DNA of 64,000 bases from Escherichia coli (lineage in GTDB: Bacteria > Pseudomonadota > Gammaproteobacteria > Enterobacterales > Enterobacteriaceae): NCBI RefSeq assembly GCF_003790525.1, contig NZ_CP033635.1; one strand, written 5' to 3'. This document shows positions 593-62,700 of the stretch, one piece after another. Below the pieces are notes generated by a model that saw only the letters and a program-made list of their open reading frames with translations, did not search any database and had not been told where the DNA came from. The position numbers were made by a program, and so were the translations under genes. Numbering within the stretch: position 1 is the stretch's first letter; every line of letters starts with the position of its first letter.

Positions 593-2740
593 ATGAAAAA
601 AGTCGTCACGGTTTGCCCCTATTGCGCATCAGGTTGCAAAATCAACCTGGTCGTCGATAACGGCAAAATCGTCCGGGCGGAGGCAGCGCAGGGGAAAACC
701 AACCAGGGTACCCTGTGTCTGAAGGGTTATTATGGCTGGGACTTCATTAACGATACCCAGATCCTGACCCCGCGCCTGAAAACCCCCATGATCCGTCGCC
801 AGCGTGGCGGCAAACTCGAACCTGTTTCCTGGGATGAGGCACTGAATTACGTTGCCGAGCGCCTGAGCGCCATCAAAGAGAAGTACGGTCCGGATGCCAT
901 CCAGACGACCGGCTCCTCGCGTGGTACGGGTAACGAAACCAACTATGTAATGCAAAAATTTGCGCGCGCCGTTATTGGTACCAATAACGTTGACTGCTGC
1001 GCTCGTGTCTGACACGGCCCATCGGTTGCAGGTCTGCACCAATCGGTCGGTAATGGCGCAATGAGCAATGCTATTAACGAAATTGATAATACCGATTTAG
1101 TGTTCGTTTTCGGGTATAACCCGGCGGATTCCCACCCAATCGTGGCGAACCACGTAATTAACGCTAAACGTAACGGGGCGAAAATTATCGTCTGCGATCC
1201 GCGCAAAATTGAAACTGCGCGCATTGCTGACATGCACATTGCATTGAAAAACGGCTCGAACATCGCGCTGTTGAATGCGATGGGCCATGTCATTATTGAA
1301 GAAAATCTGTACGACAAAGCGTTCGTCGCTTCCCGTACAGAAGGCTTTGAAGAGTATCGTAAAATCGTTGAAGGCTACACGCCGGAGTCGGTTGAAGATA
1401 TCACCGGCGTCAGCGCCAGTGAGATTCGTCAGGCGGCACGGATGTATGCCCAGGCGAAAAGCGCCGCCATCCTGTGGGGCATGGGTGTAACCCAGTTCTA
1501 CCAGGGCGTGGAAACCGTGCGTTCTCTGACCAGCCTCGCGATGCTGACCGGTAACCTCGGTAAGCCACATGCGGGTGTAAACCCGGTTCGTGGTCAGAAC
1601 AACGTACAGGGTGCCTGCGATATGGGCGCGCTGCCGGATACGTATCCGGGATACCAGTACGTGAAAGATCCGGCTAACCGCGAGAAATTCGCCAAAGCCT
1701 GGGGCGTGGAAAGCCTGCCTGCTCATACCGGTTATCGCATCAGCGAGCTGCCGCACCGCGCAGCGCATGGTGAAGTGCGTGCCGCGTACATTATGGGCGA
1801 AGATCCGCTACAAACTGACGCGGAGCTGTCGGCAGTACGTAAAGCCTTTGAAGATCTGGAACTGGTCATCGTTCAGGACATCTTTATGACCAAAACCGCG
1901 TCGGCGGCGGATGTCATTTTACCGTCAACGTCATGGGGCGAGCATGAAGGCGTGTTTACTGCGGCTGACCGTGGCTTCCAGCGTTTCTTTAAAGCAGTTG
2001 AACCGAAATGGGATTTGAAAACGGACTGGCAAATCATCAGTGAAATCGCCACCCGTATGGGTTATCCGATGCACTACAACAACACCCAGGAGATCTGGGA
2101 TGAGTTGCGTCATCTGTGCCCGGATTTCTACGGTGCGACTTACGAGAAAATGGGCGAACTGGGCTTCATTCAGTGGCCTTGTCGCGATACTTCAGATGCC
2201 GATCAGGGGACTTCTTATCTGTTTAAAGAGAAGTTTGATACTCCGAACGGTCTGGCGCAGTTCTTCACCTGCGACTGGGTAGCGCCAATCGACAAACTCA
2301 CCGACGAGTATCCGATGGTACTGTCAACGGTGCGTGAAGTCGGTCACTACTCTTGCCGTTCGATGACCGGTAACTGTGCGGCACTGGCGGCGCTGGCTGA
2401 TGAACCTGGCTACGCACAAATCAATACCGAAGACGCCAAACGTCTGGGGATTGAAGATGAGGCATTGGTTTGGGTGCACTCGCGTAAAGGCAAAATTATC
2501 ACCCGTGCGCAGGTCAGCGATCGTCCGAACAAAGGGGCGATTTACATGACCTACCAGTGGTGGATTGGTGCCTGTAACGAGCTGGTTACCGAAAACTTAA
2601 GCCCGATTACGAAAACGCCGGAATACAAATACTGCGCCGTGCGCGTCGAGCCGATCGCCGATCAGCGCGCCGCCGAGCAGTATGTGATTGACGAGTACAA
2701 CAAGTTGAAAACTCGCCTGCGCGAAGCGGCACTGGCGTAA
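593..2740 (+). CDS. fdhF: Formate dehydrogenase H (selenoprotein, Mo-bisMGD); in-frame UGA at 1010..1012 read as selenocysteine
   Basis: ORFs 593..1012 and 1061..2740 are in the same frame and separated only by TGA; N-terminal CxxC..C Fe-S motif and molybdopterin oxidoreductase-like sequence; combined length 715 aa. Confidence 0.93.
1013..1057 (+). promoter_or_regulatory. Bacterial SECIS stem-loop directing Sec insertion at the fdhF UGA
   Basis: Immediately 3' of the UGA: CACGGCCCATCGGTTGCAGGTCTGCACCAATCGGTCGG can fold into a hairpin with a GGUC apical loop, as in the known fdhF SECIS. Confidence 0.8.
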
Positions 2741-3523: not shown

Positions 3524-3675
3524 TGTAGGCCTGATAAGACGCGTTAATCGTCGCATCAGGCGTTGATGTCGGATGCGGCGTAAACGCCTTATCCGACCTA
3601 CAAAATCACGCTAAATCAGGCTATTGCGCTGTCTGACGTAGGCCTGATAAGACGCGGCAAGCGTCGCATCAGGCA
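3524..3675. repeat. REP/BIME cluster (palindromic units)
   Basis: Repeated GTAGGCCTGATAAGACGCG...CGCATCAGGC and GCCGGATGCGGCGTAAACGCCTTATCCG units in inverted orientation. Confidence 0.85.
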
Positions 3676-14103: not shown

Positions 14104-14222
14104 TTGCCGGATGCGATCCGGGCAACAAGTCGGAAACGATTTGTAGGCCTGATAAGACGCGACAGCGTCGCATCAGGCATTGATTGCCGGATGCGGCATA
14201 TAACGCCTTATCCAGCCTACAT
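14104..14222. repeat. REP/BIME cluster
   Basis: GCCGGATGCG... and GTAGGCCTGATAAGACGCG...CGCATCAGGC units between acs and yjcH. Confidence 0.85.
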
Positions 14223-18150: not shown

Positions 18151-19500
18151 TTAGATAGCCCAGCCACCCGCATAGAAGGTCACCAGCGCCACGGCAATAA
18201 CGACCGTACCGATGTTCAACTTGCGCCATTCGCCGGAAACCAGACGACCAATCACCAGAGTCGCGAAGCCGATCATGATGCCTGTTACGATGTTACAGGT
18301 CAGCACGATGAATACCGCCGTAACCAGACCCGCCATCGCATCAACAAAATCAGCAAAGTCGATTTTCGCCACGTTGCTCAGCATCAGCAGGCCAACGTAC
18401 ATCAACGCCGGAGCCGTTGCGTACCCCGGAACGAGGTAAGAGAGCGGAGAGAGGAACAGAATCAGCAGGAACAGCACGCCAACGGTGATAGCCGTCAACC
18501 CGGTTTTACCGCCCGCCGCCGTACCCGCCGCAGACTCGATGTATACCGCTGCCGGAGCTGCACCCACCAGGCCAGAGAAAACGCTGCTCATGGAGTCAGT
18601 GGTCAGTGCTTTCCCGCCGTCGATGATCTGCCCGTCTTTATCCAGCAGGTTCGCCTGACCGGCGACGGCGCGGATAGTTCCGGTGGCATCAAATACTGCC
18701 GTCATCACCAGCGCCAGAACGCTTGGCAGGACTACAGGATTCAGCGCGCCCATAATATCCAGGCTGCCAATCAGTGAATTGCCGTTTTCATCGCTCAATG
18801 AAGGCATAGCGAAAACGCCGGAGAAATGGACGTTAGGATCGAAGATCAAACCGACAATTGAGATACCGATAATGGTCAGCAGAATGCCACCAGGGACTTT
18901 CAGTTTTTCCAGGCCGATGATCACCGCCAGACCTACCAGTGACATCATCACCGGAAAGGTCGTGAAATCACCCAGCGCAACGGGCAGACCATCAAGCGGG
19001 TTTTTAATCACCAGACCGACACCATTCGCAGCAATCAGCAGCAGGAACAGACCGATACCGATCCCCGTGCCGTGCGCCACACCGTGCGGCAAGTTGCGCA
19101 AAATCCAGCTACGGATACCCGTGGCAGAAATGACCGTAAACAGCACACCCATCAGGAACACGGCACCCAGCGCGACAGGTACGCTAATATGTTGCCCCAG
19201 CACCAGACTGAATGCGGTAAACGCCGTCAGGGAGATGGCGCAACCAATCGCCAACGGCAGATTAGCCCACAGACCCATCACGATAGAACCGAGTCCGGCA
19301 ACCAGACAGGTCGCAACGAAAACTGCCGCAGGCGGGAAGCCCGCTTTACCCAACATGCCTGGAACGACGATAACCGAGTAGACCATCGCCAGAAACGTTG
19401 TTAACCCGGCAACCACTTCCTGACGGACAGTGCTTCCACGTTGTGAAATTTTAAACCAGGCGTCGAGTGAACCGCCGGTACGCGCTGATGGCGTAGACAT
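18151..19500 (-). CDS. ghxP: Guanine/hypoxanthine permease (NCS2/AzgA-like)
   Basis: 449 aa polytopic permease matching YjcD/GhxP. Confidence 0.9.
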
Positions 19501-19614
19501 AAGAAAACATCCCCTGAGAGTTTAATTTTCGTCAAGATGCGTGGCGGACAATCCCCTGCCAGCGAAACGTTATCTTCCTGCTCCAGGTTTGCGACAAATT
19601 GGTGCGTCGCAAAA

Positions 19615-19630
19615 AAGCAAACGTTTAGCT
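19615..19630. promoter_or_regulatory. Putative PurR operator upstream of ghxP
   Basis: AAGCAAACGTTTAGCT resembles the PurR box core GCAAACGTTT; additional GCAAACG repeats at about 19658 and 19753. Confidence 0.35.
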
Positions 19631-19911
19631 CCGCGCATACAAAACGGGTGGTAAAAAAGCAAACGATTATCCGGCGATCATAGCGGCTTTTTCAACCGAA
19701 GTTTGCTGCTTTTTTCTCTTTTATTGTCTTGACGATGAAAAACCAGGCAATTGATGCGCAAACGTTATCGTCGATGCGCAAGATTGCAGCGTTATCGAAC
19801 CGTATACCGTTCAGGATTGCGATAAAAAATCGCCTGAGATGACAAAAATATTGCGGCTAAAAAGTGTACTTTTACACTGGCGAAGAAACGCCGGTGACAT
19901 ACAATTAAAGC

Positions 19912-20052
19912 ATCAACACCAACCGGAACCTCCACCACGTGCTCGAATGAGGTGTGTTGACGTCGGGGGAAACCCTCCTGTGTACCAGCGGGATAGAGAG
20001 AAAGACAAAGACCGGAAAACAAACTAAAGCGCCCTTGTGGCGCTTTAGTTTT
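19912..20052 (+). ncRNA. sraL: Small RNA SraL (RyjA), convergent with and overlapping the 3' end of soxR
   Basis: Intergenic ghxP-soxR region ending in hairpin AAAGCGCCCttgtGGCGCTTT plus T-run on the + strand; sequence matches my recollection of SraL; 5' end approximate. Confidence 0.5.
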
Positions 20053-20509
20053 GTTCATCTTCCAGCAAGCGTGCGCCTGTGCCTTCTTCTCCTAAGCGGT
20101 CGCCCGGGTTACGCAATGGGCAATCACTGCGCGAAAGGCAGCCACAACCAATACATCCGTCCAGTTCGTCACGCAGCGCCACTAAGGTATGAATGCGCCG
20201 ATCCAACTCTTCTCGCCATTGGGACGAAAGCTGTTTCCACTCTTTCGCACTTAATGTATGCCCTTCGGGCAACACGCCAAATGCTTCACGAATGGTCGCC
20301 AGCGGAATGCCAATACGCTGAGCAATTTTGATGATTGCGACATATCGCAACACATCACGTTTATATCGCCGCTGATTGCCACTATTACGGATACTGCTAA
20401 TCAACCCTTTGCTTTCATAGAAATGCAGCGCCGATACCGCCACACCGCTGCGTTTTGCCACTTCGCCGGGGGTTAGCAGCGCTTTAATGCGGGGTAATTT
20501 CTTTTCCAT
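20045..20509 (-). CDS. soxR: Redox-sensing MerR-family regulator with [2Fe-2S] cluster
   Basis: 154 aa, HTH N-terminus, C-terminal [12 protein letters not shown] cluster motif. Confidence 0.95.
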
Positions 20510-20520
20510 AAATCGCTTTA

Positions 20521-20538
20521 CCTCAAGTTAACTTGAGG
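20521..20538. promoter_or_regulatory. SoxR operator within the soxS promoter
   Basis: Perfect 18-bp palindrome CCTCAAGTTAACTTGAGG between divergent soxR and soxS. Confidence 0.85.
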
Positions 20539-20594: not shown

Positions 20595-20918
20595 ATGTCC
20601 CATCAGAAAATTATTCAGGATCTTATCGCATGGATTGACGAGCATATTGACCAGCCGCTTAACATTGATGTCGTCGCAAAAAAATCAGGCTATTCAAAGT
20701 GGTACTTACAGCGGATGTTCCGCACGGTGACGCATCAGACACTTGGTGATTACATTCGCCAACGCCGCCTGTTGCTGGCCGCCGTTGAGTTGCGCACCAC
20801 CGAGCGTCCGATTTTTGATATCGCAATGGACCTGGGTTATGTCTCGCAGCAGACCTTCTCCCGCGTTTTCCGTCGGCAGTTTGATCGCACTCCAAGCGAT
20901 TATCGCCACCGCCTGTAG
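20595..20918 (+). CDS. soxS: AraC-family superoxide response activator
   Basis: 107 aa double HTH protein. Confidence 0.95.
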   Translation: MSHQKIIQDLIAWIDEHIDQPLNIDVVAKKSGYSKWYLQRMFRTVTHQTLGDYIRQRRLLLAAVELRTTERPIFDIAMDLGYVSQQTFSRVFRRQFDRTPSDYRHRL

Positions 20919-60258: not shown

Positions 60259-60568
60259 AACAATTTCCCTTCATTGAATGAATGGAGATTTACCCAAAAA
60301 CATTTCGGGCGGGATCGAGTATACACAACTAAAGCATGCGAATTACGGCGCGGGTAATTAGTGATGGGGTTTTAGGATAATTGGAATGAATATCAAATAT
60401 AAGCTTCAGATTATATATAAATAACACTAAAAATCATAAGCTTAAAATAAAAATAAAAGTAATTAATCTGCGTATTTTCCGAAATCAATCACGATTAAAA
60501 ATCTATTTTAGGATTAACCTCACGGTATGATTTCCGTTAAATCACAGACAAGGGGATTTATCTGATAA

Positions 60569-60600
60569 AAAATGCCGACATAACGTCGGCATTTTTATTA
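60569..60600. terminator. Bidirectional terminator downstream of pgi
   Basis: AAAAAATGCCGACataaCGTCGGCATTTTTATT. Confidence 0.8.
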
Positions 60601-60611
60601 GGGTTATTTAA

Positions 60612-62261: not shown

Positions 62262-62504
62262 TAGCAATACTCTTCTGATTTTGAGAATTGTGACTTTGGA
62301 AGATTGTAGCGCCAGTCACAGAAAAATGTGATGGTTTTAGTGCCGTTAGCGTAATGTTGAGTGTAAACCCTTAGCGCAGTGAAGCATTTATTAGCTGAAC
62401 TACTGACCGCCAGGAGTGGATGAAAAATCCGCATGACCCCATCGTTGACAACCGCCCCGCTCACCCTTTATTTATAAATGTACTACCTGCGCTAGCGCAG
62501 GCCA

Positions 62505-62700
62505 GAAGAGGCGCGTTGCCCAAGTAACGGTGTTGGAGGAGCCAGTCCTGTGATAACACCTGAGGGGGTGCATCGCCGAGGTGATTGAACGGCTGGCCAC
62601 GTTCATCATCGGCTACAGGGGCTGAATCCCCTGGGTTGTCACCAGAAGCGTTCGCAGTCGGGCGTTTCGCAAGTGGTGGAGCACTTCTGGGTGAAAATAG
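62505..62700 (+). ncRNA. Lysine riboswitch (L-box) in the lysC leader
   Basis: Long structured 5' leader (about 320 nt) upstream of lysC containing AGAGGCGC...TTGCC...GGAGGAGCCAG L-box-like core; aptamer boundaries approximate. Confidence 0.65.

Follow-up and report, generated by a model that had tools for sequence, protein, structure and literature searches.

SraL (RyjA) of Escherichia coli: a known small RNA gene that converges on soxR, and its overlap with the end of the soxR frame

Introduction

In the stretch of E. coli DNA analysed here (the window; 64,000 nt of contig NZ_CP033635.1), the spacer between ghxP and soxR ends in a strong hairpin that runs into the soxR stop codon. The locus therefore raises the question of whether the spacer encodes a small RNA (sRNA), and whether the overlap of such an RNA with soxR has a function of its own. 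A first-pass annotation, made from the letters alone, had named the candidate SraL and had pointed to convergent transcription that might act in antisense on the soxR 3′ end.

SraL, also called RyjA, was discovered in E. coli in 2001 and accumulates in stationary phase. An RNA of about 140 nt has been detected in E. coli and Salmonella by Northern blots and RNA-seq (PMC2190706, PMC3753932, PMC6315103, PMC5389530). In Salmonella, SraL is polyadenylated and is strongly stabilised when PAP I is missing (PMC2190706); E. coli RyjA is polyadenylated as well, and in a pcnB mutant its level is higher by log2 3.84 (PMC5389530). Hfq stabilises SraL (PMC2190706). Salmonella SraL is furthermore associated with ProQ and dependent on sigma-S, and its levels depend in part on ProQ (PMC6315103). 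As for targets, SraL represses tig in Salmonella through a pairing of 7+3 bp that was validated by compensatory mutations (Silva 2013, PMC3753932). For a second Salmonella target, published work describes pairing of SraL with the rho leader, by which premature Rho-dependent termination is blocked, with ProQ and/or Hfq involved.

Results

Identity and surroundings of the sRNA gene

Over positions 19700..20200 the window matches E. coli SMS-3-5 and several other strains with 100% identity. The genes follow in the order yjcE (minus strand), ghxP, a 544-nt spacer, soxR, soxS and pdeC (minus strand), and sraL sits between ghxP and soxR, as in K-12.

18151..19500, minus strand: ghxP
19912..20052, plus strand: sraL (ryjA) sRNA gene, 141 nt (Rfam RF01408; K-12 ryjA, b4459)
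20045..20509, minus strand: soxR coding sequence, 154 aa, an open reading frame annotated as soxR in SMS-3-5 on 100% identical DNA; convergent with sraL
20595..20918, plus strand: soxS

We scanned the whole window with Rfam 15. The sraL family RF01408 matched at 19912..20052 (+) with 153.3 bits and E = 1.1e-34, where the gathering score of the family is 39, and the match was full length (model positions 1-142 of 142). Such a match is far beyond chance. The sequence is also identical to the K-12 ncRNA ryjA (b4459) at 141 of 141 positions, with no differences. In the curated MG1655 record, ryjA occupies 4277926..4278066 of NC_000913.3 (141 nt) and soxR ends at 4277933, which gives the same 8-nt overlap as in the window. 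The earlier proposal that the roughly 140 nt before the end of the hairpin are SraL is thus confirmed, both by the Rfam search that had been suggested as a check on it and by the 100% identity to b4459. The start given for it, 19900, belongs to the −10 box of the promoter, and the RNA itself starts at 19912. Transcription is convergent as supposed, with soxR on the minus strand and sraL on the plus strand.

Of 5426 complete E. coli genomes, 5408 carry the 181-nt stretch 19880..20060 (at least 80% coverage), and 4739 carry it with an identity of at least 99%. In SMS-3-5, whose locus is identical, PGAP annotates soxR alone and no RNA gene. The sRNA is therefore missing from the automatic annotation, not from the genome. 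Compared with SraL/RyjA b4459, the window has the same sequence, position, 8-nt soxR overlap, promoter features and terminator, and its tig-pairing nucleotides are those known from Salmonella; there are no sequence differences, whereas the PGAP annotation of the strain's genome omits the sRNA. We conclude that the feature is SraL (RyjA), an ordinary and already known gene that is annotated in E. coli K-12.

In the remainder of the spacer, a search for PurR boxes upstream of ghxP gave one match (at most 3 mismatches) at 19756..19771, which is not clearly above chance for the window as a whole.

Promoter region

Two elements of the predicted promoter lie upstream of 19912.

19877..19882, plus strand: degenerate −35-like element CTGGCG, 17 nt upstream of the −10 hexamer
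19900..19905, plus strand: −10 hexamer TACAAT (positions −12 to −7), followed by TAA at 19906..19908; sigma-S-type −10 region

In all 17 species, the Rfam start is preceded at a fixed distance by a variant of the hexamer (TACAAT, TACACT, CACAAT or TATACT), which is followed by TAA or TAC except in two Atlantibacter sequences (TGA or TCA). The −35-like element is weakly conserved; it forms part of a (C)TGGCgAA block whose position is shared by Escherichia, Salmonella, Citrobacter and Atlantibacter, and CTGGCG agrees with TTGACA at only 3 of 6 positions. A scan with the sigma-70 consensus found no promoter upstream of 19912. We attribute this to a sigma-S promoter with a weak −35 element (the 3/6 match); weak −35 elements are typical of RpoS promoters (Silva 2013, PMC3753932). 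For Salmonella, experiments with Northern blots, a lacZ fusion and ChIP demonstrated that sraL depends on RpoS, and their authors indicate the same −10 and TAA features for sraL (Silva et al. 2013, PMC3753932). RyjA is listed among the RpoS-regulated RNAs in E. coli as well. The predicted promoter features of the window agree with the RpoS-type promoter of Silva et al. 2013.

Terminator hairpin

The hairpin at the end of the spacer consists of the following parts.

20021..20051, both strands: hairpin of 13 pairs, 6 of them G-C; terminates sraL (+) and presumably soxR (−)
20021..20033, plus strand: 5′ arm, AAACTAAAGCGCC
20034..20038, plus strand: loop, CTTGT
20039..20051, plus strand: 3′ arm, GGCGCTTTAGTTT, followed by T at 20052, G and TTC
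20013..20020, minus strand: U-tract of the soxR transcript, GUUUUCCG (an A-rich tract on the plus strand); putative 3′ end region of the soxR mRNA

A plus-strand hairpin closing the ghxP-soxR spacer had been noticed in the first-pass annotation at 20026..20052, and this segment proved to be the core of the full 13-bp hairpin at 20021..20051. The statement that it overlaps the soxR stop also holds, since the TAA at 20045..20047 lies inside the 3′ arm.

On the plus strand, the terminator scan identified the 13-bp stem with its T-rich tail as a Rho-independent terminator at the 3′ end of sraL. The same hairpin can form in both transcripts, with −19.0 and −20.1 kcal/mol, and it is followed by UUUU-G-UUC on the plus strand and by (UUU)GUUUUCC on the minus strand. 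The minus-strand tail past the stem is TGTTTTCC, and nearly all loci keep it as GTTTTCC or TGTTTCC. On the minus strand the hairpin was not called by the consensus terminator scan, as the full-length stem has only 4 T after it. Overlap of the SraL and soxR terminators was described by Viegas et al. 2007 (PMC2190706). The hairpin is best read as a shared bidirectional intrinsic terminator, with its use on the soxR strand judged from the sequence. Like the bidirectional intrinsic terminators of other convergent genes, it is a G+C-rich hairpin with an A-tract on one side and a T-tract on the other, at which the two converging genes end; it differs from the usual case in that one partner is an sRNA gene and the stem contains the stop codon of the other.

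RNA structure and conservation across genera

Homologous loci were gathered by exact matching of a 20-mer from the central domain, GACGTCGGGGGAAACCCTCC, in one genome per species; this sample covers close relatives only. The search gave 25 loci in Escherichia, Citrobacter, Klebsiella, Raoultella, Enterobacter, Atlantibacter and Salmonella. In the window sraL adjoins soxR in convergent orientation, and of 25 loci in other strains and genera, 24 showed the same arrangement. All 16 loci submitted to Rfam (from Salmonella, Citrobacter, Klebsiella, Raoultella, Enterobacter, Atlantibacter and E. albertii) contained full-length sraL, with 112-165 bits. The conserved segments upstream of the terminator are as follows.

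19913..19960, plus strand: 5′ domain, closed by helix 1
19923..19933, plus strand: CCGGAACCUCC (nt 12-22), invariant; the Rfam structure leaves most of it unpaired
19959..20006, plus strand: central domain (GACGUCGGGGGAAACCCUCC, helix 6 and the closure of helix 4), highly conserved

When the Rfam structure was laid on the alignment of 17 sequences, 93.9% of the cells were in standard pairs; in the control, in which the 3′ partners were slid by 1-3 columns, 41-53% were paired. Changes on both sides were observed in five pairs, four of them in the 5′ stem and one in helix 6. Helix 1 (nt 2-8 with nt 43-49, that is, 19913..19919 with 19954..19960) is paired in 95% of the cells, and four of its seven pairs have changed on both sides, for example from A-U to G-C. 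Helix 6, with its single compensatory pair, is paired in 99%. The first 20 nt of the central domain are the search pattern itself, so that their invariance is by construction. Helix 3 of the Rfam structure (nt 31-34 with nt 37-40) is poorly supported, with 66% paired. RNAalifold favours an invariant CCUC/GAGG pairing over it, together with a long-range CCGG/CCGG pairing; both of these are invariant, so covariation neither supports nor refutes them. The fold of the single sequence is uninformative alone (z = −1.94; 7 of 200 shuffles fold as well or better). Thus, the evidence for a structured RNA is homology and covariation, not thermodynamics.

Two segments stand out by their lack of change. 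CCGGAACCUCC is unchanged in the 17 sequences from 7 genera and lies outside the search pattern; we regard it as a candidate seed or protein-binding site. In the terminator stem, 12 of the 13 pairs never vary across the 7 genera, loci with a distant soxR included; the 5′ stem, by contrast, covaries freely. Since the terminator lies outside the search pattern, this invariance is not an artefact of ascertainment. It may hint, speculatively, at a sequence-specific role of the stem beyond termination, perhaps in recognition by ProQ or Hfq.

Predicted pairing with the tig and rho leaders

RNAduplex with the full-length sRNA proved meaningless for both leaders, as 53 of 200 sRNA shuffles paired as well with the tig leader and 190 of 200 with the rho leader. 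It was replaced for both by a local search with 22-nt windows, which placed the tig-pairing region as follows.

19935..19946, plus strand: tig-pairing region, SraL nt 24-35, CCACGUGCUCGA

SraL nt 24-35 can form 7+3 bp with positions −30..−18 of K-12 tig, CCGAGCACUGUGA, at −16.4 kcal/mol, a value that describes complementarity only. In the K-12 tig leader, the site found by this search is directly upstream of the GAGG Shine-Dalgarno sequence. The pairing geometry published for Salmonella is thus present in the E. coli sequences. Conservation of the tig-pairing segment is limited to Escherichia, Salmonella and Citrobacter, and in Klebsiella, Raoultella, Enterobacter and Atlantibacter the sequence differs and contains indels. 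Because these nucleotides are not conserved in the latter four genera, tig cannot explain the deep conservation of SraL, and the tig seed is restricted to a clade. For rho, the best predicted duplex joins SraL 39-59 with rho −287..−266 at −25.1 kcal/mol; this prediction is uncontrolled and not reliable.

SraL resembles ProQ-associated structured sRNAs such as RaiZ in that it is highly structured and has a long terminator hairpin after an A-rich stretch. It differs from them in being also stabilised by Hfq, and in being an intergenic primary transcript that is not derived from a 3′ UTR.

Position of the soxR stop relative to sraL

The coding sequence of soxR and the sRNA gene share eight nucleotides in the window.

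20045..20052, both strands: sRNA/soxR overlap, 8 nt, covering Gln153 in part, Asn154 and the stop TAA (20045..20047)

SoxR ends in ...LLEDEQN*, and its stop TAA is the reverse complement of 20045..20047. We compared the distance from the 3′ end of the sRNA to the soxR stop in 26 sequences, 25 of which have soxR downstream.

soxR stop at −8 nt: 8 sequences, Escherichia and C. amalonaticus
soxR stop at −2 or −1 nt: 4 sequences, Raoultella and one Enterobacter
soxR stop at 0 or +1 nt: 8 sequences, Klebsiella, Atlantibacter and others
soxR stop at +15 nt: 1 sequence, a Klebsiella MAG
soxR stop at +31 nt: 1 sequence, S. enterica diarizonae
soxR stop at +95, +105 and +185 nt: 3 sequences, Citrobacter and Enterobacter
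soxR absent downstream: 1 sequence, C. sedlakii

Among the 26 sequences, the 8-nt overlap with the soxR frame is confined to Escherichia and C. amalonaticus. In Klebsiella, soxR ends in ...GAG GAT TAA at the T-run; in Escherichia it ends in ...GAT GAA CAA AAC TAA, two codons past the end of the Klebsiella frame and into the stem. In Citrobacter sedlakii, a LysR-family gene (Pfam HTH_1 and LysR_substrate) converges on sraL in the place of soxR. This gene stops at the same TAA within the stem, again with an overlap of 8 nt, and sraL is intact there (149 bits).

The overlap is therefore not conserved wherever sraL is: the stop ranges from −8 to +185, and soxR is absent in C. sedlakii. Since sraL is intact where soxR is distant or absent, its conserved function is not antisense control of soxR, and we conclude that the conservation of sraL is independent of soxR. 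The overlap with the coding sequence is, in our reading, a lineage-specific by-product of tight packing, in which a frame that enters the hairpin stops at its TAA.

Discussion

The results are explained, with a probability of roughly 0.86, by a SraL gene at 19912..20052 (+) that has its own sigma-S-type promoter and intrinsic terminator and acts mainly in trans, the overlap with soxR being a matter of compact convergent organisation. SraL would be transcribed from the promoter with its −10 region at 19900..19908 and would end at the terminator at 20021..20052. It would then work mainly in trans, by imperfect base pairing aided by Hfq and/or ProQ. Nucleotides of about 25-34 may pair just upstream of the Shine-Dalgarno sequence of tig and so lower the expression of trigger factor, and pairing with the rho leader, as in Salmonella, would prevent premature Rho-dependent termination. 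Decay of SraL would follow polyadenylation of its 3′ end. A single hairpin between an A-tract and a U-tract would end both the sraL and the soxR transcripts. In this explanation, the identity of the gene, the covariation, the conservation of promoter and terminator, the tig pairing in E. coli and the variability of the soxR overlap were computed here; RpoS dependence, the regulation of tig and rho, the association with Hfq and ProQ and polyadenylation are taken from published work. We infer that the tig and rho mechanisms of Salmonella operate in E. coli.

The strongest competitor, which we nevertheless consider unlikely, is that SraL also acts in cis on soxR. The complementary 3′ ends would pair, and RNase III cleavage or altered 3′ stability of either RNA would follow; stationary-phase induction of SraL by sigma-S would then tune SoxR levels, or the soxR mRNA would tune SraL. 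For Escherichia this can be put, with equally modest expectations, as a cis-antisense module built on the shared terminator, in which SraL would pair with the soxR 3′ end including the last codons and the stop, with RNase III- or ProQ-dependent changes of stability or termination. If such a module existed, the general stress response would be coupled to the level of the superoxide sensor.

Energies and published observations lend this idea some weight. The two transcripts would be perfectly complementary over about 37-40 nt, provided that the soxR mRNA ends past the shared hairpin, as its U-tract suggests. A full SraL-soxR duplex would gain 24-33 kcal/mol in stability over the two hairpins taken separately, and the 5-nt loops, CUUGU and ACAAG, are complementary to each other. 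In a Salmonella RNase III mutant, SraL accumulated as a single larger band, and the authors suggested cleavage in the terminator that overlaps soxR (Viegas et al. 2007, PMC2190706); antisense action with RNase III cleavage at this overlap was thus already proposed in 2007, as a hypothesis. In 20 of the 26 sequences the hairpin and the soxR stop are at most 8 nt apart, so that overlap at the transcript level is common. The terminator stem is unusually invariant. SraL is bound by ProQ, a protein with a preference for structured RNAs and 3′ ends and with a 12-bp hairpin as its consensus motif.

The comparison across genera nevertheless speaks against this idea. Both sraL and its invariant terminator are kept at the three loci where soxR is 95-185 nt away and at the one where it is absent; therefore, the invariance of the stem is not due to soxR. 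The overlap of coding sequence, found only in Escherichia and C. amalonaticus, is explained by a frame two codons longer than that of Klebsiella. Pairing would also be kinetically hindered, as both partners are folded in stable 13-bp hairpins (−19 and −20 kcal/mol) with 5-nt loops. Literature searches on SraL/RyjA combined with soxR, RNase III, RIL-seq, Term-seq or bidirectional terminators found no soxR experiment. A cis-antisense effect on soxR is possible, at most as an add-on.

The arrangement resembles that of GadY and gadX, where a small RNA gene likewise converges on the gene of a regulator, giving two transcripts with complementary 3′ ends. The overlap of GadY with the gadX 3′ UTR is a functional pairing site. 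SraL is unlike GadY in that its overlap consists only of the terminator hairpin and varies between genera, and in that its documented targets, tig and rho, lie elsewhere in the genome.

Far less probable still is that there is no independent sRNA here, the hairpin being the soxR terminator and the sequence upstream of it a soxR 3′ UTR or a ghxP regulatory region. The lack of an RNA gene at the locus in the PGAP annotation of the identical SMS-3-5 sequence and the empty sigma-70 scan upstream of 19912 would fit this idea, but the covariation fits a plus-strand RNA, the −10 element is kept at a fixed distance, K-12 carries a curated ncRNA annotation, and sraL persists without soxR in C. sedlakii. 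The RNA of about 140 nt seen in published Northern blots and RNA-seq of E. coli and Salmonella refutes it. A small mRNA, with an ATG at 19947 and a frame of 26 codons (MRCVDVGGNPPVYQRDREKDKDRKTN) that ends at 20027, is just as improbable: the frame is open in E. coli, as the distal part of an open reading frame at 19839..20027, but the 26-codon protein was rejected because the ATG has no Shine-Dalgarno sequence upstream and is not conserved, being CTG or TTG in C. amalonaticus, Klebsiella, Raoultella, Enterobacter and Atlantibacter, with indels nearby and a pattern of conservation that follows helices, not codons.

With SraL as a mainly trans-acting sRNA, the locus holds little new biology: PGAP omits a well-characterised sRNA that is present in the curated K-12 record, and the comparison across genera marks the soxR overlap as incidental to the conservation of SraL. 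The shared sequence does have a practical side. Because 8 nt and the terminator are shared, deletion of sraL in E. coli may alter the SoxR C-terminus or the termination of soxR; in the genome-reduced strain DGF-298, 8 residues of SoxR were lost through a deletion of sraL (PMC11481515). Therefore, sraL phenotypes in E. coli would need a soxR control, and promoter mutations would be safer than deletions for the genetics of sraL in this organism.

Conservation of the sraL terminator stem

The terminator stem of sraL (window 20021..20051) corresponds to columns 140-172 of alignment A1, which contains 17 sraL sequences. In this alignment, 12 of the 13 base pairs are invariant across seven genera, in contrast to the 5' stem of the sRNA, which covaries. 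The invariance was also observed where soxR is absent or lies 95-185 nt away. A constraint imposed by protein recognition is a possible explanation for the invariance of the terminator stem.

At the locus of Citrobacter sedlakii NBRC 105722 (L007), soxRS is missing from the stretch downstream of sraL. In its place, a gene for a LysR-family regulator (L007 698..1742) converges on sraL. The stop codon of this gene is the identical TAA within the terminator stem, and the gene overlaps sraL by 8 nt.

The ghxP side of sraL

In most genera, a glutathione-S-transferase-like gene (Pfam GST_N/GST_C) is located between ghxP and sraL, as follows.

L007 1843..2532, and the equivalent place in other loci: GST-like gene
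Window 19501..19911: the counterpart interval in Escherichia

In the loci with this gene, ghxP ends at a distance of 1140-1250 nt upstream from the sRNA core, compared with about 460 nt in Escherichia and 502 nt in C. amalonaticus ku-bf3. The GST-like gene appears to have been lost in Escherichia.

Several GCAAACGTT-type repeats were detected in the region upstream of ghxP (window 19540..19800), namely the following pairs.

19606-19627 with 19648-19669: repeat pair
19565-19577 with 19760-19772: repeat pair
19561-19576 with 19615-19630: inverted pair

These repeats are similar to PurR operator half-sites. When the 16-bp PurR consensus was searched with three or fewer mismatches, only 19756..19771 was detected in the ghxP upstream region, a result not clearly above chance window-wide.

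Occurrence and annotation of sraL

The sraL-soxR region gave no match in six of 5426 E. coli genomes. Three matches in the same collection came from plasmid-typed records, and in a single genome (NZ_CP095510.1) the sRNA region is present without an annotated soxR beneath the match. The sRNA (window 19912..20052) is annotated as sraL/ryjA in the curated K-12 record. The feature is absent from the RefSeq/PGAP annotation of the identical locus in E. coli SMS-3-5 (NC_010498.1 4625366..4625866), and none was found under the match in any of the 50 E. coli records listed.

Two loci carry doubtful source labels. The 2.9-kb contig JAEWQV010000038.1 (L014), from a MAG labelled 'Bacillota bacterium', is E. 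coli-like: its sraL is identical to that of the window, and its GhxP, SoxR and SoxS show 99.6%, 98.7% and 100% identity, respectively. Its presence in this MAG is probably due to contamination or misbinning. In NZ_JAALBX010000001.1 (L022), labelled Citrobacter freundii M-21, the sraL, promoter and soxR tail cluster with the two Atlantibacter sequences and not with Citrobacter, and the species label may be wrong.

An Rfam scan of the window gave the following further matches beyond the gathering score, all of which are already known in E. coli.

1005..1059, +: SECIS_2 element (87 bits)
62498..62694, +: lysine riboswitch (99.5 bits)
60455..60603, +: STnc430 (84.5 bits)
3528..3598, 14146..14217 and 48622..48692, -: three naRNA4 repeat-derived elements (69-80 bits)

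The soxR-soxS spacer and the SoxR C-terminus

A perfect 18-bp palindrome, CCTCAAGTTAACTTGAGG, occupies window 20521..20538 in the spacer that separates soxR from the divergently oriented soxS. It corresponds to the SoxR operator already known from the spacer of the soxS promoter.

SoxR proteins truncated at the C-terminus are known constitutive alleles. In the genome-reduced E. coli DGF-298, removal of ryjA made SoxR eight residues shorter, and this strain has a constitutively active SoxS regulon; the authors dismissed a link between the two (PMC11481515). The affected part of SoxR is equivalent to the following interval.

Window 20045..20070: SoxR part affected in DGF-298

In view of the known constitutive alleles, a tie between the SoxR shortening and the constitutive SoxS regulon in DGF-298 may be worth a second look.
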